The translations under genes and the position numbers were made by a program. Positions 2,550 to 62,397 of a stretch of DNA of 64,000 bases are shown in pieces (positions within the stretch are counted from its first letter, which is position 1; each line of letters opens with the position of its first letter). Source of the stretch: Nitrospirota bacterium (GTDB taxonomy: Bacteria; Nitrospirota; UBA9217); assembly GCA_963749655.1 (NCBI GenBank), contig CAVVOB010000015.1, positions 32,001 through 96,000 of the forward strand, written 5' to 3'. Under the pieces are notes generated by a model, which was not told the origin of the DNA, ran no database searches, and saw only the letters and a list, made by a program, of their open reading frames with translations.

Positions 2550-3854
2550 CTAAAACTCCTTCGTGATCCTGATCGCTGCCCGGTTGTTCATATAATTGTT
2601 ATCGACCGCGACAGGAGATGCGGATCGAATGTATGAATAGTCGAGCGACAGAATCAGGTCTCTCGTGAGATAGTGCTTGAATGCACCTCCGTAGATCTGC
2701 GTCCTCGTGCGGACTGACGGGCTCAAGGTCCGGTCTTCGAGGTCCTGGTACTGGGCGGACAGGGCAAGAGACGTGCGGCCCGAGAACCGATGATTGAGCG
2801 ACGCCCGGTAATCCGTGCTCGAAGCCGTCGGAACGTTGCTTCTCGCGTCACGGTAATCGTTCCGCGTTGCGCTCACTGCAAAGTCCGAACGCGACAGGAT
2901 ATGGGAAAACGACACCGTATAGGTGTCCACCTGTGTGGAAATGGTGAGCGGGTCCTCGGGAAACGACCGCTTCCAGTCGAGGGACAGGGTCGTTGCAGAG
3001 ATCTTTTCGGATATCCCCGCGCTGCCGCTGACGTATTCCCGGCTCGGCGATTGGTCATAATCGAGATGACCCGTGCCTATGGTGGCGTAAAGGAAGGAGT
3101 CTTTATCGAATTCGTACCGGGGGCCGGCATAAACGTCTGTCTGCTCGTAATTTTCAACCTCGTTGCGGTCCCTGGTTTCCTGCACACCGACTGATATCGT
3201 GAGCCGTGACGACGGGGTCCACGTCGCTTCGGCGAACAGGGTCGCGTCCTTGCGGTCCACGGCCGACGCGCTCGCTGATGACGAAATATGCGTATAGGTT
3301 GTTTCACGGTACTGAAAGCCCGTGGTCACGGCCACCAGGTCAGACGGGCGCAGTACCGCGAACGGACGGACGGAAGCGATGTTTTGTTCGGCCTGATTGA
3401 CGACAAGGCTTTGCTGCGTGTAGTCCCGCTCGATATTGAGCGATACCCTGCTCAGATCATCGGCGGCCTCGAGAAACAGCAGGTTGTCGAAAAGGACCGT
3501 CCTGTTCTTCAATTTCAGCGTCTGTGCGGAGTCGTCCCCGACGGTGCCCCGCTCGAAGTGCCGGTAGTCCAGTGAATAATCGGCGTCCCAGGTCCAGAAT
3601 GGGGATTGGTAGTGGAATACGATTGCCGGGACAGCGTGCGTTATCGTGTCTTCCTTCCCGTTGACATGTTCCAGAAGGATATTGTCGTTATATTCTTCGC
3701 CGAGAGTAATGGACGGTTTCATGGTGAACTCCGCTGCGACCGCCGGTCCGGACCAGAACAGGACGGCCGCTGCAAACACTGCTGCGAGCGACGCGTACGG
3801 CCTGCCGGCGGAAGCAAAGCGCTTCAGACTACTGTCCTTCGCTTGACGTGACAT
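2550..3854 (-). CDS. PEP-CTERM/EPS-associated outer-membrane beta-barrel protein (TIGR03016-like)
   Basis: Signal peptide, EEYNDNI motif, amphipathic beta strands, C-terminal Phe; position in EPS locus. Confidence 0.75.
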   Translation of the reverse strand: MSRQAKDSSLKRFASAGRPYASLAAVFAAAVLFWSGPAVAAEFTMKPSITLGEEYNDNILLEHVNGKEDTITHAVPAIVFHYQSPFWTWDADYSLDYRHFERGTVGDDSAQTLKLKNRTVLFDNLLFLEAADDLSRVSLNIERDYTQQSLVVNQAEQNIASVRPFAVLRPSDLVAVTTGFQYRETTYTHISSSASASAVDRKDATLFAEATWTPSSRLTISVGVQETRDRNEVENYEQTDVYAGPRYEFDKDSFLYATIGTGHLDYDQSPSREYVSGSAGISEKISATTLSLDWKRSFPEDPLTISTQVDTYTVSFSHILSRSDFAVSATRNDYRDARSNVPTASSTDYRASLNHRFSGRTSLALSAQYQDLEDRTLSPSVRTRTQIYGGAFKHYLTRDLILSLDYSYIRSASPVAVDNNYMNNRAAIRITKEF

Positions 3855-4731
3855 TGAGAGCGTCGTCGCTGCTTCCGGATTTTGCGCCCGGCACCGTTCC
3901 GGACCGATAGTAATAGGGATAGCGGCTCTGTGACGGATACTTTTTCACATTGTTCAAAACCGATCCGAGAATATTGTAGTCCTGGATCAGCGACAGCGCC
4001 TGCGCGCCCGATTTGCGGTCCGATCGCCCCGCCTGCGCGACGAAAATAACGCCGTCGACGAAAGCGCAAAGGGAAAGACTGTCGGCCGCGGCCAGGAGCG
4101 GGGACGTGTCGAAAATAACATAGCGGTCGCGGTACCGTTCCTTGATCTCGAGAACCATCGATTTCATCCGTGACGAATTGATGAGCTCTGCGGGGTTCTC
4201 CGGCGGTTCACCGGCGGCAATAACGACGAGCTTGCCGATGCCGGACTTGATCATGAGCTTGGGCAATTCGACGCGCCCCGCCAGATAATCGCTCAATCCG
4301 AATTGCGGCTTCAGCCCCAGATAGGTATGCACCGACGGTTTTCTTAAATCGGCGTCCACGAGCAGCACGGTATGGTCCAGTTCATGGGAGATGGATACGG
4401 CGAGATTGATGGCCGTAACGCTCTTGCCTTCGCTCGGATGAGCGCTGGTGACCATGATCGTGTTGTGCCCGTCCTTCTTCGTGCCGGCGAGCACGCGGAC
4501 GCGGAGCTTCCGGTATTCCTCTGAGGCATAACTATAGGGATCGGTTATGGTGACGATATGGCTGTTCACGTTTGCGACGTCGACGCCGCCTTCGCCTGCG
4601 TCAAAGACCGAGGAAGGAAACGCATGGACAATGCCCCGCGCTGATGACGGGACGCCTGCGCTGACCGGCGCCGGAGCCTTGACCGATCTCATTTTTACGG
4701 CTTTTTCAAGTGCCCGTTCAATCCTGCTCAT
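3829..4731 (-). CDS. Polysaccharide-export tyrosine autokinase (CpsD/CapB, XrtA-associated)
   Basis: MSRIERALEKA start, SAHPSEGKS Walker A, LLVDADLRKP, IFDTSP, Tyr-rich tail YPYYY. Confidence 0.9.
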   Translation of the reverse strand: MSRIERALEKAVKMRSVKAPAPVSAGVPSSARGIVHAFPSSVFDAGEGGVDVANVNSHIVTITDPYSYASEEYRKLRVRVLAGTKKDGHNTIMVTSAHPSEGKSVTAINLAVSISHELDHTVLLVDADLRKPSVHTYLGLKPQFGLSDYLAGRVELPKLMIKSGIGKLVVIAAGEPPENPAELINSSRMKSMVLEIKERYRDRYVIFDTSPLLAAADSLSLCAFVDGVIFVAQAGRSDRKSGAQALSLIQDYNILGSVLNNVKKYPSQSRYPYYYRSGTVPGAKSGSSDDALNVTSSEGQ

Positions 4732-4742
4732 AGAGTGCCCCG

Positions 4743-6320
4743 TCAACCTCGAAAAATGCCGATTCCCAGATACCGGGATGCCGCCTCTCCGATCAGAACG
4801 AGTATGATCAGCAGGAGGTAGGCGCCGGAAGCGACAAAAACCTTCTTGTCGCGGGCCGCTTCGATCTGTATATCCTCTTCGGTGATAATAGCCGGGATCG
4901 ATGCCAGAACGGGGATCCGCAGCCCCTTCTCTACATCGTCCACATTCTTGAAAGACCTGTCAAAATAGTCGAGAGCTGCCGCCGCGGCTATTCCCGATGC
5001 GACGCCCAGGAACAATCCCATGAGAATCATTCGAATACGGTTGGGGCTGACGGGAACACGCGGCATGACCGGCGGATCGACGATGCGGAGACGCGTCGTC
5101 TTGTCGGCGAGCTCGAGATCTTTCGTAACCCGTGCGCTTTCCCGCTTCTGGATCAACTCGTCGTAGACCCGCTGATAGGCGTTCCGGTCCCGCTGGATCT
5201 TGGACCACTCTTCCTGCTCTTTCGGCATCCGCCCCAGGTCCGCCCGCCCCGTGTTCTGCAGTCTTGTCAGCTCGTCGAGCCGGGCTTTGAGCGACTCCAT
5301 CTCCGATTCGGTCTTGGAAAGCTCTTCCTTCATCTGGCGGTACACGGGATTCATGGCCTGCATTTCCCCGCCCCCTTCGCCCTTCTTTTTATCACTTTTG
5401 ATGCCGAGCTCCATCTGTCTCTGAAGCTGATCGATCTCGCTCTTGATCCGTATGACATCGGGATAATCTTCGGTATACTTGCTCAGAAGAAGCATGAGCT
5501 GGTTGTTCAGGTAATTCAGCCTGCCTGCCGGCGAATCGTCGTGAGAAACAAAGGCGACGGTCATTTCCTTTTCGCCCGACAGCTGCTTTCGAAGGCTCTC
5601 CCGTTTTCGCTGAAGCTCCTTCAGCCTGATCTCCGTATCGATCCGACCTGTCTGGTAATTCTCGATCCTTGCGAGAAGCGTGGCTTCACTCTGGGGAACC
5701 ATGGTGGGGTTCTTTTCGCGAAACTCGCGAATGGCCTTGTCGGAATCCTCCAGCTTTTTCTTATACTCATTGAGCTGTTCGTCGATGAAAGCATAGGCGC
5801 CGAGGGCATCGTTGATCTGGAGGCCCGTGCTTTCGGCGATGAACTCATTCACCAGCGCTTCCAGCATGGTGTACACCTCTTTGGGCTCCCTCCCCTGATA
5901 GGATATCTGGAACAGGTTCTGGGTCCGTCTGTCTCCCACGCTGCTGATGGCGGTCACCTTGAGATCCTTCTGGATCGAGGCAATCCTGCCGTCATATTCG
6001 ATGGTGTCCTTGGAGCTTTCGATCCGGTCAAGCTTTTTGAGGACACGCCCGATGATCGTCCTGCTCGTTATCGTGTTCCTCAGATCAATGAGGCTCTGAT
6101 CTCCCGGAGGAACGCCGACGCCCTGGATGAGGGGATTCAACAGCGCGCTTTTCTCTATGGTTACGGAAACCGATGCCTCGTAGGTCTTCGGGCACAGGTA
6201 GCTCCCCCAGGTGAACAGCGAGACCACGAGCAGAGCAGTGGCCAGGGCTATATACCGCCTCTTCCAGATCAGGTCCCGGTACCGGTTGATATCGAATCCG
6301 GTTGGTTCTTCTTCGTGCAT
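4743..6320 (-). CDS. Polysaccharide chain-length determinant (Wzz/GumC, XrtA system)
   Basis: Two TM segments flanking long coiled coil, YTEDYPDV, IVDPP..P..PVSPNR motifs. Confidence 0.88.
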   Translation of the reverse strand: MHEEEPTGFDINRYRDLIWKRRYIALATALLVVSLFTWGSYLCPKTYEASVSVTIEKSALLNPLIQGVGVPPGDQSLIDLRNTITSRTIIGRVLKKLDRIESSKDTIEYDGRIASIQKDLKVTAISSVGDRRTQNLFQISYQGREPKEVYTMLEALVNEFIAESTGLQINDALGAYAFIDEQLNEYKKKLEDSDKAIREFREKNPTMVPQSEATLLARIENYQTGRIDTEIRLKELQRKRESLRKQLSGEKEMTVAFVSHDDSPAGRLNYLNNQLMLLLSKYTEDYPDVIRIKSEIDQLQRQMELGIKSDKKKGEGGGEMQAMNPVYRQMKEELSKTESEMESLKARLDELTRLQNTGRADLGRMPKEQEEWSKIQRDRNAYQRVYDELIQKRESARVTKDLELADKTTRLRIVDPPVMPRVPVSPNRIRMILMGLFLGVASGIAAAAALDYFDRSFKNVDDVEKGLRIPVLASIPAIITEEDIQIEAARDKKVFVASGAYLLLIILVLIGEAASRYLGIGIFRG

Positions 6321-6329
6321 GGACTGCTC

Positions 6330-7182
6330 CTAAAAAAAGCTGCTGTTGACCCGTACGATATCGCCCGGTTTTAAAACGACATTCTTCGCGATCTTTCCGT
6401 TCATTACATCCTTAAGCGGCACCTTGATGTTCTTTACGACTTCATCTTCTTTACGGACGATGACGACCCCGTTCCGGCTGGCATATTCAGTAAAGCCGCC
6501 TGCGCTCAGTACGGCATCGAGCGCCGTCATGCCCTCGGCGAACGGGACGAGACCGGGCGTCTTTACTTCACCGACGACGCGAATCCGGGTGGTGATTCCG
6601 CCGGGAAGATAGATGATATCGTTGGGCTCCAACTTGACATCCTGGCTCAGATCGCCTTTCGTCATAAGTCTCAAAAAATCCACGGCAAGCCTTTTTCCGT
6701 CCCGTGATACGAAAGCGTCCTGCATCTGTACGCTGTCGAGGGACCCCAGCTGTGCAAGCATCTGGAGGAGCGTGGTGTCCCGCTTCAGCGTGTACTGACC
6801 GGTGGGAAACGATCCGTTTCCGGACGGGGCCGTCCGGGAAAGCCCTTCGCCGAAAATGTAGATTCTTGAAGCTGTTGACCGCCGTGACGAGAACGCTTAC
6901 GACGGGCGCTTTCATAAACTTCGCAAGATCCTTCTCCAACGCCACCTTGAGCTCTTGCGGCGTTTTGCCGGCCGCCCGTACATCGCCGACGAGCGGCATG
7001 GAAACCATGCCGTCAGGCCGAACAGGGACATGAACGCTCAGTTCTGCATTTCCCCAGACCGAAATCTGAAGCATGTCCTCTTCGCCGATGATATAGGCCC
7101 GGGCCGTGCCCGGTGCTGCAACGGCCGAGATGAGCACGAAGAGCAGTACGGAGAATCGGATGCTTGGGATTATTCTTTGCAT
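6330..7182 (-). CDS. Polysaccharide biosynthesis/export protein (Wza-like, SLBB domains); frameshifted
   Basis: YIIGEEDMLQISVW, VRPDGMVSMPLVGDV.AAG in 6568..7233; VVGEVKTPG, AGGFTEYA, LKPGDIV in 6330..6761. Confidence 0.88.
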
Positions 7183-7405
7183 AATGTCTCCCGTCCGGTT
7201 CTCAGTGGGAACCGGACTTTTATCTTTCACCAACCACCGTTTGCTCCGGAAGCGAGCGCCATGGACGGATGTTGTTCCTTTATGGCCGGATATAGCTTCG
7301 CCCCTTCAGTTACAGAGGCTTTCTGCAACATGATGCAAACACGCATTTCTTGTGGGAGGCGCGGCCCTGACATCGGACCCTTTCTACGAAGCCGACGATT
7401 GCTTT

Positions 7406-8092
7406 CTATACCGTTTCTATATCCTGGGGCGAAATAGCGACCGAAACCGACCGGCCGAGCAATTCGATATTCACCTGGAACAGATACCCGTCGTCCTTCC
7501 TGAAAAGGGTTCCCTCGGCTGTTTTCAAGGGACCGTTCTTTACCCGCACACGGCATCCCTGCAGAAATTCAGGATACAGGTTGATCGCGATACCGCTGTC
7601 GACGAGGAGCCGCAGAGACTCGACTTCTTCATTTGCGATCGCCGTCGGATGGCCGGGCTCCAGTGAGACGAAACAGGCGACCCCGCGCGTCTGAAGGACT
7701 TTGATGAACAATTCAGCGTGACGCGGTATTCGCACAAACAGATATCCCGGGAAAAGGGGCTGCTCGAGGTGTTTTTTTCTGTCCTGCCATTGCCTGACGC
7801 TGGTTACGGTCGGCAAGAATGACGTGATGCCTTTTTTCATCAATTCACAGGCCGCGACAAATTCATGCCTCGACTTTACCGCGACCGCATACCAGTTCTC
7901 CAGACAAGCATGGTCGTCCGTCCCGTCAAGGGACTCCCCGGCAGGCGCGGCAACGGCGGCCTCATCCGACTGTTCGAAAACATCCGGATCGCTCCCGCTC
8001 AGTTCCGCTGCCGGTGCAGCGCATTCTGCGCTGTTCGCAGCAGCCGGCTTGTCATCAACATCTGTCTGCATGAGCCCCGCCTTTCCTGTCAT
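7406..8092 (-). CDS. UpxY/LoaP-type NusG-family transcription antiterminator
   Basis: WYAVAVKSRHE, PLFPGYLFV NGN domain and KOW (RVRVKNGPL); precedes EPS genes; unusual ~65-aa acidic N-terminal extension. Confidence 0.85.
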   Translation of the reverse strand: MTGKAGLMQTDVDDKPAAANSAECAAPAAELSGSDPDVFEQSDEAAVAAPAGESLDGTDDHACLENWYAVAVKSRHEFVAACELMKKGITSFLPTVTSVRQWQDRKKHLEQPLFPGYLFVRIPRHAELFIKVLQTRGVACFVSLEPGHPTAIANEEVESLRLLVDSGIAINLYPEFLQGCRVRVKNGPLKTAEGTLFRKDDGYLFQVNIELLGRSVSVAISPQDIETV

Positions 8093-48659: not shown

Positions 48660-50549
48660 TCATTTCTTCCGATGGCAAATAGTGCACAATTCATTGCGAT
48701 TTCTGATATCGTAGGCAAACAGATCCTTGGATTCTGCGCTGTGTGGATCATGACAACTGGAACAGGTCAGGCGCCGTCCCGGACGCAGCGGATCGGATTT
48801 GAGCCTGGTAGGATGCGTGATCCCCGTCAGGAGGCCGGTGATGACATGGACACCCGATGCTTTTTCCGAGTGGCAGGTGGTGCACACATCCCACGTTGAC
48901 TTTCTGAGCCAGAAACGCTGGTTGCTGGCGTGCGGATCATGACAGAGAGTGCAGTAACCAGCCTCGGTTGGCCCGTGTTTAAAGGTTTTAGCGAGCACTT
49001 CGCCGTGGCATTTAAGACAGACTTCCTTCACGGTCAGGTTGTTTGTTGTGGCGGCATCCTGATCGAAAACCCTTGCATACTGTTTGGACCCGAGAACATA
49101 GGTTATTTTCGTCTGGGCCGGAAGCTGAGCGCCCTTTGCGTCTTTTTTTACGACATAGGAGAGGGTTTCGGAGAAATTCCCGTCCATATTTCCAAGGTCC
49201 CAAACCAGATCGGAATCCTTTGCCCTGGGTTCCTTGGCGCTTCCCTGGAAATGCCCGCTCCCCTTCAAATAATGGACACCGGAAGGAATCCTTTCTGTGA
49301 GAGTAATTTTTTCAACCCTTGGCCCCTTAGTATAGGACATACTGATGAGCACCCTTTCCCGGTCCGTGAGAAGGGGTAGGTTCCGGCTGTTCGTTATCGC
49401 AACGTCGGCAGGATATACGACTACCTCGACGCGGTTGTTGAGTTCTCTGCCCTCCTGTGTACCATTGTCGGCCTTGGGCAGTGTGTCGCCCATGCCGACC
49501 GCAGTGATGTTTCTCGCCGGCGCGATCTTCGCTTCCTCCAATAATGCCGCGACGGCCTTTGCACGTTCCGCGGACAAAGCTTCGTTACTGACGAAGCCCT
49601 TCCCTTTTTTCGGCCCATTGTCCGTATGCCCTTCAATGCGTACACGGTCTCCCGGACTCGCTTTCACGTAAGCAATAACGTCTTTCAGTATTTCCAGGGC
49701 TTTATTCCGCGAAACGAGGACCGCGCTGGACGGCATGAACAGCTCCGTGCTCGAAAGCGTGTAGAGTACCGGTTCGACCGGCTGCACGGTTTTGGCGACC
49801 CTCCAGGGATCAAAGGACAAGAATTGATATTTCACAGGGTAGATGGCCGGGTCGTGACAACCGAGACAGTTCCAGACGGCCGCGGGACCATGCACATGGA
49901 TGCCTGTCGGTATGCTGTTGTGACAGGTGAAGCAGAGAACATCTTCAGGCTTTTTATGGGCGTAATCTTCGCTCGTCGCCTCCATCCGGTGACAGCCCGA
50001 GCATTCCGCTTCGTGTTCTCGTGAATGAAAAAGAGCCTGAGTAAAACCGGCCGGCGGCGCCCCTTTGAACGACGCCTCCCGGTTATATACGCGAAGATCG
50101 CGAGTTGCGTAGGTCTTCAAGACAGTCAGGTTCTTTTCATTCTTTACCTGAATGATGAACCTGACGGTGATCGTGTTTGCCCCCGGCTGGAGTGCAAGCC
50201 CCTGGGAAGCATGCTTTCCCGTAGAGCTGTCGATGACGGGATATTCTGTTTTATTGTTTACGACGGCCTGGAAAAACGGGGTTTTCGACCAGTCGGCGGC
50301 GGGGTCGAGGACGAGATTCACCCTGCTGTTGACCAGCGAATCCGGTCTGGGATAGAGGATTTTTACAGGCGGAGCATCCGCAGCCAGAACGTATGTTTCT
50401 GCACACAGGCAAGCAAGAACCAACGGAACTATGCAAACAAATAATCTGGTCAAAAGATGCCCCTGGTCATCGTTCCCGGTCAACGATTTGAAATGAGAGA
50501 CGCTTCTTCCGTGAGAGACGGGCTCAGCGGGAGTAGGTCTTTTGTTCAT
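48660..50549 (-). CDS. Octaheme cytochrome c with inserted OmpA-like and DUF11-like domains
   Basis: 8 CxxCH (3 N-terminal, 5 C-terminal); IEGHTDN..LSAERA..NNRVEV OmpA domain; LTERIPSGVHY..LVWDLG. Confidence 0.85.
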   Translation of the reverse strand: MNKRPTPAEPVSHGRSVSHFKSLTGNDDQGHLLTRLFVCIVPLVLACLCAETYVLAADAPPVKILYPRPDSLVNSRVNLVLDPAADWSKTPFFQAVVNNKTEYPVIDSSTGKHASQGLALQPGANTITVRFIIQVKNEKNLTVLKTYATRDLRVYNREASFKGAPPAGFTQALFHSREHEAECSGCHRMEATSEDYAHKKPEDVLCFTCHNSIPTGIHVHGPAAVWNCLGCHDPAIYPVKYQFLSFDPWRVAKTVQPVEPVLYTLSSTELFMPSSAVLVSRNKALEILKDVIAYVKASPGDRVRIEGHTDNGPKKGKGFVSNEALSAERAKAVAALLEEAKIAPARNITAVGMGDTLPKADNGTQEGRELNNRVEVVVYPADVAITNSRNLPLLTDRERVLISMSYTKGPRVEKITLTERIPSGVHYLKGSGHFQGSAKEPRAKDSDLVWDLGNMDGNFSETLSYVVKKDAKGAQLPAQTKITYVLGSKQYARVFDQDAATTNNLTVKEVCLKCHGEVLAKTFKHGPTEAGYCTLCHDPHASNQRFWLRKSTWDVCTTCHSEKASGVHVITGLLTGITHPTRLKSDPLRPGRRLTCSSCHDPHSAESKDLFAYDIRNRNELCTICHRKK

Positions 50550-51858
50550 GGCACCCCGGCGCGCATGATCCTCCGGTCTTGCTCGGGCTGTAATTCATCG
50601 GCATGAGCCAGCCGTTGAACCCCACCGTCTGCCGAACATGATGCAATGACCCGCTGTCGGCGTGGACTTCATGACAGGCCCTGCAGGTCCTCCCTTTTGC
50701 CGCCTTGTTTACATGAAAATAATGAAGATTCTTTCGCCCGTTCCTGAAAGCGGTAGCGTCGTCCGTTCGTGGCTCCTGGAAGGCCGTTTTGTCATGACAG
50801 GAGAAACAGAGCGCATACTTGCCGTCGGAATAGGACGTGTAGAAATCTGCCGGATAATAGCGCGTCAAAATGCGCCAATAGTCCGATCCATGGGGATTGT
50901 GACAGGAGGTGCAGTCCTTGTTCTGTACTGGGCCATGACTGTTCTTCTGGGTTGCAAGCCAAGTTTTCATGTCCATGATCCTGCCGCGTTCCGTATCGAA
51001 TTGTTTGTTATGGCAGCGCAGACAAAGGTCCATCTCAGGCTCGGGCAGGAGGCGTGCGTTGTCGGAGTAGTGCGGATCGTGGCAATTCAAGCACGTTTTG
51101 GCGTCGATCATGGGACCATGCTTGACTGCGGCTTTTTCCATCAGCGACGTTTCGCCCGGATGGCACTTGGAGCACAAGGCCGGGACCGGAGCCGACATCA
51201 TCGCTTTGTTCGCAGATCCGTGCGGGTTGTGGCATTGCACGCACGATTGCCGGACAGGCTGATGAGATGACTTCTTTATTTTCAGACCGTCTTCTTTGTC
51301 AGGATGGCAGGTAAAACACAGCTTATTCCCCTCCGCAATCAGTCTGTGCGGAAAATCACTTTGATGGTTGTCATGACAGCCGGAACAGTCGCCTCCGGCC
51401 ACGGGAGGGTGCATGACCTTCTGCTTCATCATGCTGTCAGGATGGCACTGGAAGCAAAGGCTGGGTACGGTGTCCTTCAGCATGCCTTTATTCGGAGAAC
51501 CGTGGGGATTATGGCACGTAGTACAGTCTTTCCCCATGATCGGAGCATGAACCGTCTTTTTCGTGTTTTTCGGCTCATGGCACATATAGCAGAGGTCTGA
51601 ATCTGATTGGACCAGGGAAATCGTCAGGTTACCCGGATGCTTCGCATTCTTTTTTGCAGGTTCCTGCGTCACCTGGTGACAAGTGGAGCATCCATCCTTG
51701 ACAGGAGCATGAACAAACTTGAATTTCGTGAATTTAGAGTGGCAGGAGCCCGAGATGCAGGATTCGGTTTGAGAGAAGGACGGAGAAACGAGCATGGTGT
51801 TCATCGTGACGATCAACAAGGAGAACAATAAAATGTCCCTTATAGGTTCTTTATTCAT
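50524..51858 (-). CDS. Multiheme cytochrome c (~15 hemes, doubled-CxxCH repeats)
   Basis: Signal peptide; 13 CxxCH plus CISGSCH and CAPGCH; H.P..C..CH.PH repeats. Confidence 0.9.
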   Translation of the reverse strand: MNKEPIRDILLFSLLIVTMNTMLVSPSFSQTESCISGSCHSKFTKFKFVHAPVKDGCSTCHQVTQEPAKKNAKHPGNLTISLVQSDSDLCYMCHEPKNTKKTVHAPIMGKDCTTCHNPHGSPNKGMLKDTVPSLCFQCHPDSMMKQKVMHPPVAGGDCSGCHDNHQSDFPHRLIAEGNKLCFTCHPDKEDGLKIKKSSHQPVRQSCVQCHNPHGSANKAMMSAPVPALCSKCHPGETSLMEKAAVKHGPMIDAKTCLNCHDPHYSDNARLLPEPEMDLCLRCHNKQFDTERGRIMDMKTWLATQKNSHGPVQNKDCTSCHNPHGSDYWRILTRYYPADFYTSYSDGKYALCFSCHDKTAFQEPRTDDATAFRNGRKNLHYFHVNKAAKGRTCRACHEVHADSGSLHHVRQTVGFNGWLMPMNYSPSKTGGSCAPGCHEQKTYSR

Positions 51859-51937
51859 ATTCGTAAAACTCCCTGTTGTTTGTAAATGATTGGCGAGATG
51901 ATGATTGATAAATATTCTTTTTATCCAAGGTAAAAAC

Positions 51938-51953
51938 TGCAAATTATGTGCCC
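51938..51953 (-). promoter_or_regulatory. Sigma-54 promoter of cytochrome/NHL operon
   Basis: Minus strand GGGCACATAATTTGCA = GG-N10-GC. Confidence 0.72.
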
Positions 51954-52035
51954 GTAAAAAGAAATCAGAAATACTAGCAAGACTATGATTTTATGAAGAT
52001 AATTAATCTACTATCTAATATGAATTAACATCTTT

Positions 52036-52248: not shown

Positions 52249-53010
52249 TTATTCAAGATCGGGATGACAGCGCTTACAATCCTGAATCGGGAAAGCAACA
52301 GTCAGATGGCAGGCTCCGCAGAACATTCCTTTATTGATGTAGTCCATGCGGAAATGCTTTGTGCCTTTTTTCTGGATATTAAAGATATCAGGATGACAGT
52401 CTGCGCAATCAAGCCACTCTGTATGCTTCAGATGAGGAAAAACGGCTCTGGTCTTTATCATGTTCCATTCCGGTTCAAGACGCAGGTTTTTGTCGAAGGG
52501 AATCGGCTCATAATTATCCGTAAGGCTCTGATGCGGTTTTATCATTTTTTTCCTGAGAGCCTTCACCCAGTTCACTTGATCGCCGTATCTCGCCCGGGGA
52601 AGGTTGTCCAGTTCCGAGTACCTGGCGTCTGTGGATCCGATGTTTCCGGTATGGCAGAGCAGACAGGTCTCTTCGGTGACTGCGAACGCAATGGTTCCGT
52701 TATGGCAGGCGCCGCAATACTCGCCCTTTTTGATCTTTGCGTCGGTGATGTCGGTTGCATTCGCTTTCATTGCGAAATTAAGCTCAAAGTGACAGACACG
52801 GCACGTATAATACCGCCGATGGACCCAATGGGAAAAAGACACTGGCGGATGCGTGCTGCTGGCGGTCAATCTGCTGATGAGGACATTGCCGTACCGTGCA
52901 GGCGGAGGGAGTTGCGGAAGGTTAAAAACGTCGTCGAACTGGGTGCCGGCAGCCATTGCGGCATGACTCACGGCACCCAGCAGAACGAAGAAAAAAACTA
53001 CTACTCGCAT
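52249..53010 (-). CDS. Hexaheme cytochrome, two c(7)-type triheme domains
   Basis: FSHWVH..CRVCH, YCGACH, CLLCH; FPH..H..CADCH, FCGACH, CKRCH. Confidence 0.9.
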   Translation of the reverse strand: MRVVVFFFVLLGAVSHAAMAAGTQFDDVFNLPQLPPPARYGNVLISRLTASSTHPPVSFSHWVHRRYYTCRVCHFELNFAMKANATDITDAKIKKGEYCGACHNGTIAFAVTEETCLLCHTGNIGSTDARYSELDNLPRARYGDQVNWVKALRKKMIKPHQSLTDNYEPIPFDKNLRLEPEWNMIKTRAVFPHLKHTEWLDCADCHPDIFNIQKKGTKHFRMDYINKGMFCGACHLTVAFPIQDCKRCHPDLE

Positions 53011-53062
53011 AAATTACCTGGCTTTGCCATCTGCCAATCGTGAAGTTCCTGCATGAAACCGA

Positions 53063-53848
53063 CTAATAGACTTCTTTCAAATGACAAAGTTGACAATCAT
53101 AGAACGGGAACGCAACCTTTGCATGACAGGCGCCGCAATACTTTCCGGCGAAGATATCCTGCATGTTGTATTTCGTCGATCCCTTTTTTGCTCCGAAAAT
53201 TTCAGGATGACACAATTCGCAGCCGTTGATTTCGGCGTGGATCTTGTGAGAAAAGATGATGTCCGGCATACCCAGGATCGTTGACTTGATGTCAAAGTCC
53301 TTCGGATTGGGGATGGCCTGTCGCTTGATGGAAATCCCCTCGACCAGGTCCTTGAGCTTGATCTGCCCGGCGGCCTCGGCTTTCATCCAGTCAACCCTGT
53401 TTCCAAACCGAGCCTGAGGGTAGTTCTTTAAATATTCGTTGAAATCATATTTGAACTTTACGTCCTTGCCGTAGGAATGGCAGCGGTCGCAGTTCTGCGT
53501 CTCGGACACAACCTTGTCGCGCGAGGTAGGACCGAAGGCCTCTTTCCCGTTGTGGCAGGAGCCGCAGTAAAGATTGTTCTTGTTGTCAGCTTCCCTGATG
53601 TCGCTGCCGCCGGCCTCCATGGCGAAACCAAGGTCCACGTGGCAGACCCTGCAGGTATACTTCGATCGGTGGAGCCAATGTTTGAACACTACCGGAGCTA
53701 TATTGCTTTTCTCCGAATAGTTGTTTATGACTACGTTACCGAACTCCTCGGGTCGCGGCATTCTTTTCTTGGTGCCGAAGTTGGCTGCAACCGCAAGGGA
53801 TGCAAACACCAGCACAAACACGGCAATGATCAGAACTTTGAATTTCAT
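53063..53848 (-). CDS. Hexaheme cytochrome, two c(7)-type triheme domains
   Basis: FKHWLH..CRVCH, CGSCH, CDRCH; FSH.IH..CELCH, CGACH, CQLCH. Confidence 0.9.
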   Translation of the reverse strand: MKFKVLIIAVFVLVFASLAVAANFGTKKRMPRPEEFGNVVINNYSEKSNIAPVVFKHWLHRSKYTCRVCHVDLGFAMEAGGSDIREADNKNNLYCGSCHNGKEAFGPTSRDKVVSETQNCDRCHSYGKDVKFKYDFNEYLKNYPQARFGNRVDWMKAEAAGQIKLKDLVEGISIKRQAIPNPKDFDIKSTILGMPDIIFSHKIHAEINGCELCHPEIFGAKKGSTKYNMQDIFAGKYCGACHAKVAFPFYDCQLCHLKEVY

Positions 53849-53936: not shown

Positions 53937-55390
53937 CTACCGGTGGCAGCTCAGGCACAAATCCGCCGGTTTCTCCGCTTTATAGCGGAAGAGATCCGAC
54001 CAGTCGGAGCTGTGCGGATTATGACAGCTGACGCAGGCCATCTTTCTCCCCGGCCGCCTCGGATCGTCCGCGCTGTCGAGAGGATGTCCGGCCTGTGATC
54101 CCTTTGCCTTGAGCCCCGGCAGCGTCGTTTTCGGGTGGGGATTGTTAAAGATGCCTTTGTGGCACTTCCTGCATGATTCATTTCCTTCGAACTTCGACAA
54201 ATTTTTGTACGGTGATGTGTGGTTGCCGTGGCAATCGTAGCACTTCCCGTCAGCGACAGGCTTATGCACGTTCTTGCCGGTGAATCCCTCGGTATTGTGG
54301 CAGGTGTAGCACAGGTCAGGCACTTTTCCGCTCAGGAGCTTGGGATTCTGGCTCTGATGCACGGTGTGGCATCCATTGCACATGCCGATCTTGAAGGGAC
54401 CGTGTTTTTCCTTGCCCCCCAGCTCCTCATTCATATGGCAATCAAAGCAGAGGGCCGGTGTCGATTTCGTCAGCAAATATTTCGACTTTGCAACATGAGC
54501 ATTGTGGCACGTCGTGCACCTCCCGCCCGCTACCGGCTTGTGTCCGTACTTCGCGCCTGTAAAGGATTTCTTATCATGGCACTTGTAGCACAGGTCCGGC
54601 TGCTTTGCCTGCAGAAGCTTCTCTGTTTTTGATTGATGCGAGGTATGACAGGACGAGGCAGTTGCCTTCCTCAACGGGAGCGTGCACGATCCCCCCGGTG
54701 TAGGCGCTCTTGTCGTGGCAGGAGTAGCAGAGGCCGGGTGAATCCGCTACAAGCAGATTTCTTGCGTTCTCGGAGTGCGGGTTATGGCAAGAATTGCATT
54801 TGCCGGAGATTACCGGTTGATGCTGCATCGCGCCTCTTGTCGGCAACGCTCGCCTTATCATGACACCGGAAACAAAGTTCAGGCATGCTGAAGGTCAGCA
54901 GTTTTTCGCTGTTGTCCGAACTGTGGGCCTCATGACAAAACATGCAGAGACCGGCGGCAGTGGGGAAATGAACGTTTTTCTTGGCAGCGATCTTCTTATC
55001 GTGGCACTTGTAGCACAGGTCCGGCATGGCCGTAGTCAGCAGCTTGACGTTGTTGGATGAATGCGGGTTGTGGCAGGATGTGCATTTGCTCGTGCCGATC
55101 GGCTTGTGCTGATACTGCTTTAAAAAAAGACCTCTGCTGTGGCAGTCATAACACAGATCAGGCTGATCGGCCTTAAGGCTCAAAGTGGCCTTGTCCTTGC
55201 TGGCATGAGGATTTTCGTGGCAGGCGCTGCACCCCTTCTTCATTGCTGCATGGAGCACCTTCCCCTTGCTCATTGCCTCATGACATTTATTGCAGTCCTG
55301 GTCCTGCGCCGCGGCCGAAGGACGCGCAAAAACGAGAAGAGATGCACAGAAGCATGCCATACAGAATGCGAGTAGGTTCTTACGTTTCAT
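53937..55390 (-). CDS. Multiheme cytochrome c (~19 hemes, doubled-CxxCH repeats); two frameshifts
   Basis: Joined ORFs 54782..55390 (7 CxxCH), 54574..54861 (2, plus 1 at the junction), 53937..54674 (9); signal peptide. Confidence 0.85.
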
Positions 55391-55453
55391 GTCCCTTTCC
55401 AGTCTTGCCCGAAGAAGCTCAGAATAGGATCGCTGCTCCAGCCACTGCGGAGT

Positions 55454-56751
55454 TTACTTGATCTGCCGTATAAATTGTTTGAGTTCGGAGTCATCGGGGG
55501 CGATCTTGAGAGCCCGTTCCCAGGTATCTTTCGCCCTGTCCTTCTTCCCGATTGCGTAATACCCCGATCCGAGCCTCTTCCAGGCAAGGATATTCTTCGG
55601 CTGCAGTTCAATGACGATGGTGCACTCCTGGATGGCCAGGTCGTAACGCCCGTCGTAAATATGATTCAATGCGGCGAAGAGGTATTGATCAACGATATTC
55701 ATGTCGCCCACCGGGGCTTCCATGGTCGTCAGGATGGAGACATACTTGAGCTCAAGGAATCCCTTGACCGCAATGGTCAGCGACGTCGGGTTCAGTTGAA
55801 ACGCATACCAGGCTGCGGCCATGGAGGCTTTGCGGTTGCCGTCGACGGCGATGTAGTGCGCCATCGCCGTTCTCATCATGTCGCCTGCCAGGTTCGCGTC
55901 GTCAATGCGAAGCGCCACTTTGGCGACATCTTCGAGCCGCGAGATCATGGTCTTGACGTCGATGTCGGTCGGGTTGTCGGCAAGGATCTTGCTGTAATAG
56001 TCGCGCGCGGTTATGTAGTCGCCCCGTTCATAGGCCTGTTTCGCATCGGCGTAGATGGTCTTCATTTTCTCACGAACTGCCGACGCTATGTACCGGGAAG
56101 CGGCTTCCTGCTTGTCGTCGATATCGAGGATCTTCTTCCATTCGGCAATCGCCAGATCGTACTGTTTGTCCTTCATGTAGGCGTCGGCCTGGTCGTAGTG
56201 TTTCTTGGTCCGGACATCGACGACATTGCTTTTTGCCTTGTTCAGGAGGCTCAGGGCTTTACGGTCGTAAGGTCTTACCGCGAGGATCTTCTCCAACTCG
56301 TTGACCGCGGACGATAGTCGTTTTCCTGGATGAACTTCTCGGCCTGCTCGTGCATCTCGTTGGTGGTCTTATCGGTAATGAGATTTTTCGTTGTGTCTAT
56401 CAGGGTCGCGAACCTGCGGTCGTCGGGGTTCATCTTCAGCAGCTTGTCCCACGTCTCGATCGCCTTGGCGTAATCCTCGTTCAGGAACGCGTCGGTCGCT
56501 TCCTTGCAGAACGGCTCCATCGACTGCTGTCTGGCCAGCGCCAGATAGCGGGATGCGGTCTTGTCGAAAGGATCGATGGAGAGGATCTCGTTCAACAGAG
56601 GCGCCGCCTGCTCGAATTTCCCCTCTCGGAGGAGAGCGACGACGTCCTTCTTGAGCTGATCGATCCGCTCGACCTGCTTCGGCGTTACGGCTTCAGCGCC
56701 GGCTGCAATGCAGAACAGAAGCAACAGAATAAGAGCAAAAGACTTTTTCAC
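55454..56751 (-). CDS. Secreted TPR-repeat protein; frameshifted
   Basis: Signal peptide MKKSFALILLLLFCIAAGAEA; tandem TPR helices across 56275..56751 and 55454..56296. Confidence 0.8.
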
Positions 56752-57417
56752 CCTTTGACTCCTCTGACCACGGTGATTTCGATGCGCCGGTTTTTTGCCC
56801 GTCCGGCGTCATCTTCGTTTGAAGAGGCGGGCCGATACTCGCCGAAACCGTGGGCTACCAGCCGCTCGGGGGGGATCCCCTTGTTGATGAAAAAATAAAT
56901 GACGCTGAAGGCCCGCGCCGACGACAGTTCCCAGTTCGACTGGTACTGCTGGGTGTGAATGGGAACATTGTCGGTGTGACCTTCTGCAATGATGCTGTTG
57001 CCCATGGGCTTCAGCTGACTCTCCAGATAGTCCAGGAAAAACAGGATGTCCTTCTTGAGGTCGGCGCTGCCGCTGTCGAAAAGGGCGAAGGCTCTCCATG
57101 TTGATCTCGATGTTGTGCGGGGTCATCTTGATGCGGATTTTGTCTTCCAATCCGTTTTTCTTGATGAAGTCCCGTACATTCTGGGCCAGCGCGATCTCCA
57201 GTTTCATCTGCTTGACCCGCGGATCGTTCGGGTTGGTCGATGCAAGATCGGAAAGCGCTGTTTCATATTCCACGGAATTGACCGAGGAAAAGGCGTAGAA
57301 CATGATGAAGAGAATGACGAGGGTGAGCATCAGGGTGCTGTAGGGCAGCATCCAGAGCTCGGTCTCCTCCATCTGTTCTTCGGTATAATGTACGAATTTC
57401 TGAAGAACCGATATCAC
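56748..57417 (-). CDS. MotB-like stator subunit 2 (TM lacks conserved Asp); frameshifted
   Basis: TM WMLPYSTLMLTLVILFIMFYA; LFDSGSA, GHTDNVPI, NWELSSARA, NRRIEI OmpA domain. Confidence 0.82.
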
Positions 57418-58084
57418 AGCGTGCTCCTGGGCTGACGCACGATCGTCAGCTCGATTCGCCTGTTCCGTGCGCGATGTTCTTCCGAATCATTCGGAAACGC
57501 CGGATGGAATTCGCCGTAGCCCGCGGCAACAAGCTGTTTCGGATCCATTCCTGATGAGGTGAAAAAGTTGACGACGCCGACTGCCCTGGCAATGGATAAT
57601 TCCCAGTTGGACCGGTAGGCTCCCCCGCGCACGGGTGTCGGGTCAGTATGGCCTTCGATGATAATGTCGTTCGGAAAGGGCTCGAACATACCCTACCAGA
57701 CTCTCCAGGACGTTGACTGTTCCGGGGTTCAGCTTGGCGCTGCCTATGGAAAAGAACGATTCGGGATTCAAAGCTATCTTAACGGACTTCTCGCCGACCT
57801 CTATGGTCGCTTTGCCGGCCAGCTTGCCCTCGGTCACCGCCTGCTGGAGCATGCGGATGGCTTCTTCTTCCCGCTGCAGCTTTGCCTGACGCTCGAGTTC
57901 CACCTGGTCGCGCGCCGATCTGTTGATGACCGTACTTTCCATGCCCGAAACGACCATCTGCTTATCTGCTGCGGTCATGCGGGTCATGGCAAAGAGCATG
58001 AGGAAAGAAAAGCATGAGGTTCGTGGTAATATCGGAGAAGATAATGAGCCAGATATTCCCTATTTCTTTTCGTTTTTCCGTCAT
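57414..58084 (-). CDS. motB: MotB-like stator subunit 1; frameshifted
   Basis: Manual translation from 58084: MTEKRKEIGNIWLIIFSDITTNLMLFFLMLFAM (W..F/Y.D motif); GHTD, NWELSIARA, NRRIEL. Confidence 0.8.
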
Positions 58085-58124
58085 GTCGTCGTCAGCCTTA
58101 CAGTTCTTCCTCGGGTCTCAACGG

Positions 58125-58896
58125 TTATTTCTGCCGCATATGAGCCATGATGAATGCAGTCAGTTTCTTCCGCAGAATGAGCGGCACATCGCCCTGCTGG
58201 ATCGACATGATGCCTTCAGCGATCATCTCTTTGTTGATGATGTCGCGTTCGCTGTGGTCCGTGAGCTTCGTGGCGATCGGGATGAAGACATTCGCGGAAA
58301 AGATCCCGTAAAAGGTCGCCGTGACGGCGTTCGACATGGCGGCGCCCATGCTCGAGGGATTGGACAGGTTGCGCAGCATGTCCACGATGCCCATGAGTGT
58401 GCCGAGCAGTCCGAAAATGGGGGCGACCGTGGCCATCGTCCTGAATGCTCCGGAGACCTTCTGCTGGTTATGACGCGTGTAGAATATCTCCCGGCCGAGG
58501 TTGTCCTTGATCACGTCATGATCGAGGCCGTCCACGAGCATCTGCACTCCATGAATGAGAAATTTGTCGGTCTGGTTGGGCAGTTCCGACGGAAGACTCT
58601 CGATGCCCTCCCGCCGTGCCTTTCTCGGCAAGAGTGGAAAGATGATCGATCATGTTTTCCATGTCCTTGTCGCTGTGCTTGCTCGGGAACAGGAGGATGC
58701 GAAGCGACGGGACGATTTCCTTGATCACCGGCCAGGGATAGGCGATCAGGGTCGCGCTGAACGTACCCCCGTAAACGATGATCAGGGCCAGGGGATTGAA
58801 AAGCATATGCAGGATGTTGCCTGCAGCGAGAACATACAGGATCGTCAGCAGTATCGCGACGAGCCCGATTACGGTCATTTTATCGATTTTTTCCAT
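58125..58896 (-). CDS. motA: MotA/PomA-like stator subunit; frameshifted
   Basis: LIIVYGGT, KARREG, FLIHGVQMLVDG, APIFGLLGTLMG, AVTATFYGIFSANVFIPIATKL, EGIMSIQQG. Confidence 0.9.
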
Positions 58897-58898
58897 GG

Positions 58899-60330
58899 TT
58901 AGCTGTTTTCAACCTCCACGAGTCCTTCGCTGATCAGCCGCCTTACCAGAACCATCACATTCTGCTTCTCCCGGCGCAGCCGCGTCGCTGAGAGAGGACG
59001 ACTGAGGTCCATTTCTTCCTTGAGCCGTTCCGATGCTCCGGCGCTCAGGGAGGTAATGACTTTCTGCTGGATCTCGACAGGAAGGGATTTCAAAACCTGG
59101 GCAAAGAGCGTGGCGTCGATGTTCCGGTACAGCGTCTGAACGCCCTGCACGGGCAGATCCCGGATGATGTTCTCCAGGCTCTTCACTTTCTGTTTCAGGC
59201 GCGTCGCGGTCTGGGCGTCTTTCGTCTCGAGTGTTTTTACGATCTTGTCGCGGACGTCGTCGCTCGTCATATCGAGCAGCGTGACCAGCTTTGCTCTCGC
59301 CTCCTACGACGTACGCCAGCTTGCTTTTGACCATCTCTTCGAGGGCCGCGACCTTTTCCGTGTTGATTTCTTCCTTGCCGAGCGCGAGTGCAACTTCGAC
59401 CTGCCGCTCCTTCGGGAAAAGTTCAAGGAGCCTCATGGCGATCGCGGGGTCGAGATAATTCGCCACAACTGCTATATCCTGGGGGGTCTTGTCCTTCATC
59501 AGGAACGCCAGACTCTGGATGTCACGCTCCCGGATGAAGGAAAACGGAAGAGACTGGTCGGCAGCCGGCGCACCTGCTCCGGAGCGGTCCGCTTTGCCGG
59601 AAAGGACCTCCCGCTCGTAGCTGGACGTACGTTCGACCGTATTGACATTAACGGAAGTCGAAGATGCCCCCCCGCGAATGTGATTCCAGTCGATGTCCTT
59701 GAGCGCCGGGGCGATTTTTTTCAACGGGTCCATGAAGAACATCCCGACGGCGACGAGCATGAAGCCGCCGATGATCGTCAGGAGAAGCCAGAAGAGGTTC
59801 GGCGGGAAAAACAGGGATGACCAGTAAAAACCCTTGGATTCGAAGTCTACCTTCTTTATGTTGATCTGGTCGCCGCGATTCTGGTTGTAGCCGATGACGT
59901 TCTTTGCGATGTCCTCGATAAGAGTCGCGATCGACCCCGGAACGCTTTTGTCGATCCATATCGACAGGACGATCTTGTTGACCTTGTACTTGCTGCTCCC
60001 GGCGCCGAACAGCATTTCCGATTGCCCCGCGCCGAATTCCTTCTTTTCCGGAACTCCGGGAAGTACGAGGGCGTTCGTTTTTTTCTTTTCAAGAAGCTTA
60101 TCGCTGTCCCCCCGTGCCGACGCCAGCTCGGCATTCACGAAAATGACGACCCGGTCGGTGCCGGTGATTTCCATGATAACCTGCTTCAGCTTTCTTTCGA
60201 GCTGGTTCTCAAGGGAAATCTTGAGTGCATAGTCATCGTTGACCTCGGCGTGGGCCCGATGAACGGTTGCAGCAAATGTCAATGACAGCAGCAGAAGGCA
60301 GAGCACGAAGCGATTCAGTTTATGAACCAT
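58899..60330 (-). CDS. FliF(RBM3)-TM-FliG(middle+C-terminal) fusion protein; one frameshift
   Basis: Signal peptide; LENQLERK..G..V.V..EL, LPGVP, IGYNQNRGDQINI (FliF C-terminal ring motif); TM; PFSFI..PQDIAVVANYL (FliG-M); ERLKEEM..VRRLISEGLV (FliG-C, 58899..59270). Confidence 0.8.
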
Positions 60331-60550: not shown

Positions 60551-60753
60551 AACATTGTTGATTAGCGCTCTATCACTGCCGTCATATGTTCGATAGCGCG
60601 ACACAATAACATATTGATTCAACATTTGTAAAGTGGAATCTTGTCTTTTAATTGAATTGCGTGTATGATACCCCCCGCAGATTTTTACGGGACCATTCAC
60701 CAAAAAAAATTCCCAAAATATTGGGTGCTGAGACCCGAAAAAAGGACGGTACT

Positions 60754-62397
60754 ATGCGTAACGTAGCGGTTGGAATATTGGTTTGTTTCATGATGGTAAA
60801 CATTGTCGGTACAGAAGCGTCGGCCGCCAAAAAAGACTCCAAAAAAACGACAAAACAAACGACCGCAACGCCTGCACAAACCGGGCAGGAGGCGGCCGCA
60901 AAGCCGGAAAAGTCGGAACCGATCAATGCACGGTACACCGACAAAAGCGACGGCACGATCCTGGACAAGAATACCGGGCTTGTCTGGTTGAAAGACGCAA
61001 ATACCGGAAGTCTCCCTTTGCCGTACGAGGGGGCAAAACAGTACCTCCAGGAAATGAACAGCGGCAGGAAGCCCAATTTCGGCTTTACCGACTGGCGCCT
61101 GCCTACCATCAATGAAATTGAGACCCTCGTCGAAAAAACCAGGTTCTATCCGGCGCTTCCTGCGGGCCATCCCTTTACGAACGTGCAGAATAATTATTAC
61201 TGGTCTTCTTCAACGGGCAGAGATGTCATTGACTATGTATGGATCGTCGACATCGCCTCGGGCGAAATGACCATGGACTATGTGTCGGCATGCAGCTACA
61301 AATTCCTCTGGCCGGTGAGAAGCGGCTGGATGCCGACTACTGCGAAAGCCAGCACGGTCATGACCGGAGGTTTGAACGAATTCGGACAGCTCGGCGACGG
61401 TTCAACGGGAGACCGGGACGCCCTTCTGCCCGTCAGCGGGCTTGACAATGTCGTCCGGGTCTCCGCAGGACTTGAACATGCCGTAGCGCTCAAATCCGAC
61501 GGCTCGGTGTGGGCGTGGGGAAGAAACAACGGCGGCCAGCTCGGAAACGGCTCCAGTGAAGACAGCCGCGTTCCTGTCGCAGTCAAGGACCTCTGGAAGA
61601 TCACCGATGTGGCGGCCGGCATGTTCCATACGGTCGCACTCGCTTCAGACGGCGCCGTCTGGACCTGGGGAAGGAACTCCTACGGCCAGCTCGGAAACGG
61701 CTCGAACACCGACTCCAACACTCCCGTAAAGGTTAAGGGCCTGTCGGGCGTCGTCAAAATCTCTGCAGGGATGTATCATACCGTCGCGGTCAAATCGGAT
61801 GGAACCGTCTGGACCTGGGGGAGAAATGTCTACGGTCAGCTCGGGAACGGCTCGAATAAGGACGAAAACAGCCCGGTGCAGGCTTCCGGACTTTCCGGCG
61901 TGATCAACGCAGCAGCCGGTCTGCATCATACCATTGCCCTGAAATCGGATAAAACCGTCTGGGCATGGGGCTGGAACATCAACGGGATGCTGGGGGACGG
62001 GACAAGCACTGACCAGATGAAGCCGGTGAAGGTGCTGGGACTTTCCGACATCACAGACATCGAGGCCGGGCTCCATCATTCTATCGCACTCAAGACGGAC
62101 GGGACGGTCTGGGCATGGGGCGGCAACGAATACAGCCAGCTCGGGAACAAAACGGCGAATGGGGCCACTGCCGTGAAAATCGAGGGGTTGGGGAACATCA
62201 AGAAAGTTTCCGCAGGGACCTACCATTCCATTGCGGTGATGTCCGATGGGACGATCTGGGTGTGGGGCAAGGACCTGAAAACACAGCCCGCGAAGCCCTA
62301 TCCCGTGAGGATCTGGGATGTGGCCGGGATCAACGATGTGGCCGCAGGAAGGTTTTATACGGTCGTGCTGAGCGGGGGCAAAACAACGGCGCCATGA
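60754..62397 (+). CDS. Secreted DUF1566 (Lcl C-terminal-like) + RCC1-repeat protein
   Basis: Signal peptide, DGTILDKNTGLVW, DWRLPTINE, YWSS; ~7 RCC1 repeats (HxVALKSDGTVWxWGxNxxGQLG). Confidence 0.88.
   Translation: MRNVAVGILVCFMMVNIVGTEASAAKKDSKKTTKQTTATPAQTGQEAAAKPEKSEPINARYTDKSDGTILDKNTGLVWLKDANTGSLPLPYEGAKQYLQEMNSGRKPNFGFTDWRLPTINEIETLVEKTRFYPALPAGHPFTNVQNNYYWSSSTGRDVIDYVWIVDIASGEMTMDYVSACSYKFLWPVRSGWMPTTAKASTVMTGGLNEFGQLGDGSTGDRDALLPVSGLDNVVRVSAGLEHAVALKSDGSVWAWGRNNGGQLGNGSSEDSRVPVAVKDLWKITDVAAGMFHTVALASDGAVWTWGRNSYGQLGNGSNTDSNTPVKVKGLSGVVKISAGMYHTVAVKSDGTVWTWGRNVYGQLGNGSNKDENSPVQASGLSGVINAAAGLHHTIALKSDKTVWAWGWNINGMLGDGTSTDQMKPVKVLGLSDITDIEAGLHHSIALKTDGTVWAWGGNEYSQLGNKTANGATAVKIEGLGNIKKVSAGTYHSIAVMSDGTIWVWGKDLKTQPAKPYPVRIWDVAGINDVAAGRFYTVVLSGGKTTAP

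Follow-up and report, generated by a model that had tools for sequence, protein, structure and literature searches.

Models of the ion-driven MotAB, PomAB, ExbBD and TolQR motors assume an axle of two identical helices, with their Asp residues acting alternately. In a stator-structure preprint, the MotB residue D32 is called invariant, both copies are placed inside a ring of MotA T209 residues, and ion binding is proposed to alternate between the two MotB chains, with MotA turning by ~36 degrees per event. A review of 5:2 motors considers that steps of 72 degrees, or steps in "limping" pairs, could result if the symmetry is broken. Here we describe a tandem pair of MotB genes behind one MotA gene, of which the upstream member (MotB1) encodes the ion-binding Asp and the downstream member (MotB2) does not. 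The pair lies in a 64,000-nucleotide stretch of DNA (hereafter the window) from a Nitrospirota bacterium of the GTDB lineage UBA9217 (GenBank assembly GCA_963749655.1, contig CAVVOB010000015.1, positions 32,001 to 96,000 of the forward strand). Comparison with homologs suggests that the same asymmetry has arisen repeatedly, always at the expense of the downstream paralog.

In the window, MotB1 read from its ATG begins MTEKRKEIGNIWLIIFSDITTNL, and its transmembrane (TM) segment, NIWLIIFSDITTNL, carries an Asp encoded by GAT, whereas the TM segment of MotB2 read from its GTG, ELWMLPYSTLMLTL (also given as EETELWMLPYSTLMLTL), has a Thr encoded by ACC at that position. Phmmer searches against solved structures set both the MotB1 Asp and the MotB2 Thr opposite the same Asp of C. 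sporogenes MotB (6YSF) and B. subtilis MotB (6YSL), each protein matching solved MotB chains with E-values of about 1e-34. MotB1 thus has the TM counterpart of E. coli MotB D32, and MotB2 lacks it. Codons and alignment bear out an earlier note on this DNA, which had named these residues, and the note was also right that the Thr codon is not one base away from Asp, because two changes separate ACC from GAC or GAT. The 4-bp overlap that it reported between the two genes is the sequence GTGA at 57417..57414, where the MotB1 stop TGA (57416..57414) shares bases with the MotB2 start GTG (57417..57415), and 56748-58084 spans exactly the interval from the MotB2 stop to the MotB1 start. Its further statement that both proteins keep full OmpA domains stands only if frameshifts are read through; no single open frame encodes either protein here. 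On the window pieces, the Pfam OmpA profile scored 51.3 bits for MotB1 (profile positions 32-98 of 98) and 62.2 bits for MotB2 (1-98 of 98), and both intact orthologs from genome G020 covered positions 1-98. For MotB_plug (Pfam cut-off, 24 bits), the MotB2 piece scored above the cut-off at 34.8 bits, the 27-amino-acid MotB1 fragment below it at 22 bits, and the intact G020 orthologs reached 36.8 and 30.8 bits. The best scores against the NCBIfam equivalogs for MotB, MotD, MotS and PomB, 143.5 bits for MotB1 and 155.8 bits for MotB2, lie below the cut-off of 283. The observation is therefore real, yet it is read across frameshifts and is in that sense partly confirmed.

The residue at the Asp position was then compared across homologs. 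A search of 5.8 billion proteins gave, as the best 120 MotB2 homologs, sequences down to 48% identity; 118 of them cover the position (the other two are truncated) and carry Thr in 115 cases, Asn in three and Asp in none. Wider comparison used one alignment of 147 MotBs from genomic loci and 22 database proteins. A search for related loci that settled on generic OmpA-type motifs gave, among the matches listed, mainly ordinary MotAB loci, which served as controls, and it supplied three Elusimicrobiota loci. Single MotBs adjoining a MotA have Asp in 73 of 73 cases. Among 37 tandem pairs, the upstream paralog has Asp in all 36 informative sequences (one is truncated); the downstream paralog has Asp in 14, Asn in 15, Thr in seven and Ser in one. 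The 22 database MotB2s divide into 19 with Thr and three with Asn. Together, the 23 Asp-less downstream paralogs from loci and the 22 database proteins give 45 Asp-less sequences, in all of which the replacement is polar (Thr, Asn or Ser) and never hydrophobic. Representatives of 50%-identity clusters, 128 of which are at most 300 amino acids long among 150, show Asp in 107, Asn in 14, Thr in three, Ser in one and a gap in three, and the MotB2-type motif W-x-x-P-Y/F-x-(N/T/S) is present in 18 of 18 Asp-less representatives. The earlier note had made conservation of the loss among MotB2 orthologs its test, and the outcome is divided: no MotB2 of the Nitrospirota-type clade keeps the Asp (none among 118 informative homologs, and none at the 7 intact loci), but the 14 Asp-bearing downstream paralogs, which belong to Elusimicrobiota, do. 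Since these are deeper orthologs, the loss in MotB2 is likely to be derived and repeated. On these alignments, loss of the Asp appears confined to the downstream paralog.

A FastTree phylogeny of 119 rows, for which 24 of the 73 single MotBs were drawn at random and one truncated row was dropped, united all paired MotBs in a clade with support 99 that excludes 23 of the 24 single MotBs. The MotB1 sequences group together in this tree, allowing for swapped upstream and downstream labels at locus L021, where open frames overlap, and the topology requires at least four changes between Asp and other residues. Because the tree combines a supported paired clade, one MotB1 group and these repeated changes, the MotB1/MotB2 duplication appears to be old, with the Asp apparently lost several times from MotB2 and never from MotB1.

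Loss of the Asp has not been accompanied by relaxation of the surrounding helix. Over a 22-residue TM window, mean pairwise identity was 0.63 for MotB1 and 0.54 for MotB2 (36 pairs), compared with 0.50 for the 73 single MotBs; the MotB2 TM helix is as conserved as that of ordinary MotBs. Asp-less and Asp-bearing MotB2s scored 0.59 and 0.61, respectively. In 22 MotB2s, W22, M23, P25, M30, L33 and F37 are invariant, as are Y51, E52 and A54 just after the helix; relative to the Asp position (D), D+2 and D+9 are invariant, and D-1 and D+13 nearly so. In MotB1, W15, D21, T24, N25, L26, F29, F30 and L31 are invariant in 22 of 22 orthologs. As a separate observation, an Asn follows the MotB1 Asp by four residues in the motif D-x-x-T-N-L, again in 22 of 22 (locus L010, 7373-8047, and the ortholog alignment); it is an extra polar residue on the helix face shared with the ion-binding Asp, at a position where Leu is commonest in ordinary MotBs (62 of 73).

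The pair belongs to a conserved gene module, seen in Nitrospirota and Elusimicrobiota, that comprises a FliF-C/FliG fusion, MotA, MotB1, MotB2 and a TPR protein. In G020, a genome that is 100% complete, all module genes are open: the fusion has 471 amino acids, MotA ~261, MotB1 225 (IWLIIFSDITTNLMLFF), MotB2 222 (LWMLPYSTLMLTLVILF) and the TPR protein 431, and the cytochrome is 491 amino acids long. The fusion, MotA, MotB and TPR genes stand in one operon in the window, in seven further genomes (G020, G022, G152, G256, G273, G041 and G231) and at the Elusimicrobiota loci L012, L016 and L021; the identical gene order recurs in Elusimicrobiota as well as in another three families of Nitrospirota. 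Of the 401 Nitrospirota genomes sampled, 17, from four families, have MotB2 orthologs (E-value of 1e-55 or better), and MotB1 adjoins MotB2 in all 17. The order MotA-MotB1-MotB2 is present in 29 of the 30 best Elusimicrobiota loci, the remaining one having MotB1 only, and each MotB pair in the stretches examined has one MotA beside it. Taking the nearest MotB2 start, the MotB2 start and MotB1 stop overlap by four or one bases in ten of 36 pairs and by eight bases in one, and lie at most 30 nucleotides apart in 14, so that 25 of 36 pairs show an overlap or a gap of at most 30 nucleotides. An apparent MotB1-MotB2 fusion at L107, a 590-amino-acid open frame, was rejected, as a run of N separates the two genes. 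Two loci depart from the common plan. At L012 (Elusimicrobiota), a second TPR gene lies between MotA and MotB1, besides the one after MotB2 (2563-3537 and 5091-5981). L014, a Candidatus Termititenax record, encodes at 3718-7615 a FliF/FliG-like fusion and MotA with only one MotB, which carries the Asp, which indicates that a cassette with one MotB exists outside the two phyla studied.

The earlier note had treated the pair as part of a flagellar stator, and this premise was wrong: four of five tested carriers of the FliF-C/FliG-fusion module gave no match to flagellin or FliF (G000, G020, G022 and G256). Matches to Flagellin_N and YscJ_FliF were obtained in the fifth, G041, on a contig other than that of the module. 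FHIPEP (FlhA) had no match in any of three genomes (G000, 86.6% complete; G020, 100%; G022, 90%), nor in three Elusimicrobiota carriers, whose completeness is not stated. The only FliG_C match in each of G000, G020 and G022 is the fusion itself. The module MotA nonetheless appears to be of the flagellar type. The G020 protein aligns end to end with solved flagellar MotA and PomA chains (E-values of 1e-41 to 1e-23), and its best NCBIfam matches are flagellar MotA, MotP and PomA (2.5e-55 to 1e-48), all below cut-off; TolQ reached an E-value of only 7e-4. The Thr of the TM4 motif ATFYG is kept, opposite the equivalent Thr of solved MotAs. In TM3, the module MotA (L010, 6558-7340) reads GLLGT; its Thr is shared by the MotAs of C. 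sporogenes and Paenibacillus TCA20 and corresponds to Ala in the H+-type B. subtilis MotA. This residue, which may give a clue to the coupling ion, we tentatively equate with the second Thr described for Na+-type stators.

The operon in the window occupies 60330..53937 on the minus strand as six co-oriented genes (Table 1), every one of which is frameshifted: three-frame translation and tblastn with intact orthologs located eight frame changes in ~6.4 kb (53.9-60.4 kb). No RNA data set containing the operon came up. Assembly error is probably the source of these shifts rather than real decay, because relatives hold the operon intact and because near-identical public contigs have exactly one base fewer than the window at 3 of 3 covered frameshift sites. 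Contigs of four other public runs, 85-100% alike, were compared, their coverage leaving out sites 58003 and 57089; in three of the runs, single bases are absent at 57683 (runs X1 and X3), 58619 (X2) and 59295 (X1). It is possible, although we consider it doubtful, that the frameshifts are real and that the operon copy is a decaying, non-functional remnant, in which case this organism would have no working MotB pair. In favor of decay, the changes are clustered, with every operon gene hit and shifts much sparser elsewhere in the window; a uniform window-wide frameshift rate was rejected, as most overlapping pairs of open frames elsewhere proved by Pfam to be separate neighboring genes. The flanking RCC1-repeat gene (60652..62397) and two cytochrome genes (52249..53848) are intact, and long genes elsewhere in the window, encoding up to 884 amino acids, are open. 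Moreover, genomes of 14 congeneric species (74-100% complete) yielded neither MotB2 nor the operon. Against decay, the operon contains no in-frame stops and no larger deletions, and about seven of the eight changes are surplus bases relative to G020, with one missing base, in what is a noisy DNA alignment. With frames read across the shifts, 33 of the 40 listed differences to related contigs, beyond which 145 more exist, fall on third codon positions. Similar broken genes also occur in other metagenome-assembled genomes of the same family that consist of few contigs: L095 (G243) has the fusion, MotA and TPR genes in pieces, and L097 (G231) the RCC1 gene, which suggests indel errors in the long-read assemblies of that group. 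The single-base indels are oddly local, all eight frame changes found falling in 53937-60330.

Table 1 Genes of the operon in the window and the frame changes located within them
Feature	Coordinates	Strand	Basis or remark
FliF C-terminal/FliG_M/FliG_C fusion	58899..60330	-	Pfam YscJ_FliF_C, FliG_M and FliG_C on window pieces and intact G020 ortholog
FliF/FliG fusion, frame change	59289-59295	-	residue 342
MotA/PomA-type stator A subunit	58125..58896	-	Pfam MotA_N and MotA_ExbB
MotA, frame change	58606-58631	-	tblastn/three-frame translation
MotB1, B subunit with TM Asp	57414..58084	-	ATG 58084; Asp GAT 58033..58031
MotB1, two frame changes	~58003-58004 and 57679-57694	-	tblastn/three-frame translation
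MotB2, B subunit with Thr at the Asp position	56748..57417	-	GTG 57417; ACC 57336..57334
MotB2, frame change	57079-57092 (near 57089)	-	tblastn/three-frame translation
TPR-repeat protein with N-terminal signal-like helix	55454..56751	-	Pfam TPR families
TPR, frame change	56311-56350 (near 56315)	-	tblastn/three-frame translation
Multihaem cytochrome c (paired CXXCH)	53937..55390	-	Pfam Paired_CXXCH_1 on G020 ortholog
Cytochrome c, two frame changes	near 54840 and 54655-54692	-	tblastn/three-frame translation

The fusion protein is built of a signal or anchor helix, a periplasmic part, a TM helix and cytoplasmic FliG-like domains. The TPR gene after MotB2 is a kept downstream partner in Nitrospirota and Elusimicrobiota loci, and the multihaem cytochrome neighbor is kept in some Nitrospirota loci (L010, L011, L096 and partly L093). 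Divergent to the fusion, on the plus strand, the RCC1-repeat gene encodes 581 amino acids; an RCC1-repeat neighbor also occurs in G020, G256, G243, G041 and G231, and a downstream multihaem cytochrome is common to several. Elsewhere in the window, one open frame on the minus strand at 48663-50594 combines paired-CXXCH multihaem motifs with an OmpA-like peptidoglycan-binding domain (Pfam), and adjoins a multihaem cytochrome with MtrC/MtrF-like domains at 50527-51990.

How might such a pair work? We give an even chance to the reading that MotB1 and MotB2 are old paralogs serving one MotA in a non-flagellar rotor-stator module, with a B1-B2 axle that holds a single Asp. By the comparisons above, MotB1 appears to be the subunit whose Asp is indispensable, and MotB2 one whose helix, following segment and OmpA-like domain are constrained while its Asp is dispensable and has repeatedly been replaced by Thr, Asn or Ser. 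The asymmetry between an upstream paralog with Asp in 36 of 36, single MotBs with Asp in 73 of 73 and a variable downstream paralog agrees with a MotA5-B1-B2 unit that has a single ion site. From this pattern we infer co-assembly of the two MotBs, their stoichiometry and the stepping. The MotB1 and MotB2 helices would stand together in one MotA pentamer as a heterodimeric axle, and the coupling ion would be bound and released by MotB1 only. Ion-driven steps would then measure 72 degrees, one for each MotA subunit, in place of the 36-degree steps made when two equivalent Asp residues alternate, and MotB2 would serve as a passive second axle helix and a second peptidoglycan anchor. More tentatively, and with rather less confidence than an even chance, we propose a half-site 5:2 motor, in which a MotA pentamer around the single-carboxylate MotB1-MotB2 pair would drive a ring of the FliF/FliG fusion in a non-flagellar envelope machine.

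A preprint gives A31, M34, M38, F41 and W45 as the MotB-MotB coiled-coil contact positions of E. coli MotB; S27, M30, F37 and Y41 of MotB2 (D-1, D+2, D+9 and D+13), invariant or nearly so, match four of the five. This agreement with an axle is suggestive only, as about half of the MotB2 TM positions are conserved and the match taken alone is not significant. Besides the clustered frameshifts and the failure to find the operon in sister species, several points weigh against this one-Asp axle. The phylogeny is a FastTree only, in which several forks deep in the MotB2 groups stay open. The Asp persists in 14 of 37 downstream paralogs, and two alternative active stators, as Aquifex has them, would explain those lineages equally well. 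Finally, alternation of both Asp residues is what the current model calls for, and a one-Asp unit is not known to turn.

The alternative suggested by those lineages is that one MotA serves two alternative homodimeric units, A5(B1)2 being the working ion-driven stator and A5(B2)2 carrying a different periplasmic tether; an Asp-less MotB2 would act as a non-conducting placeholder, brake or anchor that competes for MotA as well as for positions on the FliG ring. We regard this as unlikely, although the Asp-bearing downstream paralogs suit it and it has a precedent in Aquifex aeolicus, where, according to PMC4525482, each of MotB1 and MotB2 works with MotA as a chimera. Under this arrangement, a dead unit must have arisen at least four times while its TM helix remained under the same constraint as live ones (0.59 against 0.61). 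The close spacing of the genes, seen in 25 of 36 pairs, points instead to equimolar synthesis. In addition, the Aquifex TM regions are given in that paper as 97% identical, whereas those of the module are very different.

A second alternative removes MotB2 from the stator and makes it a membrane-anchored, peptidoglycan-binding scaffold for the TPR protein or for the periplasmic part of the fusion, with its helix outside MotA. Dispensability of the Asp would be expected of such a protein, and the MotB2 stop overlaps the GTG start of the TPR gene by four bases (56751..56748 in the window, and likewise overlapping in G020). We nevertheless find it improbable: the position stays polar in all 45 Asp-less sequences and in the 18 Asp-less cluster representatives, the TM helix is conserved as in ordinary MotBs, and MotB_plug is still matched above its cut-off, none of which a lipid-exposed anchor helix would need. 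It is more improbable still, to the point of being remote, that the Thr, Asn or Ser of MotB2 belongs to an ion site of another kind (such as one that holds Na+ through a hydroxyl or amide) with both helices conducting; the replacements are always oxygen-bearing polar side chains, and the module MotA has the TM3 Thr, Ala in the H+-type B. subtilis protein, that we equate with the second ring Thr described as conserved in Na+-dependent stators in the stator-structure preprint, but according to the same preprint no known stator works without a carboxylate, and Thr, Asn, Ser and Asp interchange among close relatives, arguing for a tolerant, not a tuned, position.

A MotB family in which the Asp is dispensable in one axle subunit only offers natural material for asking whether one ion site is enough, how large the step is and what the second helix does, and it assigns subunit roles within a flagellum-independent FliG-MotA module of two phyla. 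If the single-Asp, half-site motor were correct, alternation between two equivalent Asp residues would not be obligatory for rotation, and nature would have tried a single Asp on at least four separate occasions. A literature search, with subscription-only journals outside its reach, found no published Asp-less MotB paralog, MotB heterodimer or description of the module.

Set against known systems, the module resembles the flagellar MotA5MotB2 and PomA5PomB2 stators (6YSF, 6YSL, 6YKM and 8BRI), with which it shares an end-to-end MotA alignment, the MotB_plug TM segment, the OmpA-like domain, the MotB1 Asp and a FliG-like C-terminal domain encoded next door. It differs from them in having two different B subunits, one without Asp, in scoring below cut-off against all NCBIfam flagellar equivalogs, and in the fusion of its FliG part to a C-terminal piece of FliF. 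The motA/motB1/motB2 operon of A. aeolicus (PMC4525482) is similarly arranged, with one motA gene followed by two motB genes; that system is flagellar and its TM regions are nearly identical, whereas the TM regions of the module differ (WLIIFSDITTNLMLFF versus WMLPYSTLMLTLVILF) and one of them is Asp-less in many lineages. The AglR-AglQ-AglS gliding motor of Myxococcus xanthus (PMC11761067, PMC9389320) is alike in combining a pentamer-forming A subunit with two different B-type subunits, and modeling predicts heterodimeric insertion as AglR5-AglQ-AglS; the review of 5:2 motors calls the hetero- or homodimeric state not known. The Agl proteins, however, are of the TolQ/TolR type, not the MotA/MotB type, and AglQ and AglS are both said to carry the conserved Asp. 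Judged from sequence comparison, the Asp-asymmetric pair would be a variation on the MotAB stator, set in a non-flagellar module not previously described as far as our search reached, and its proposed mechanism is plausible.

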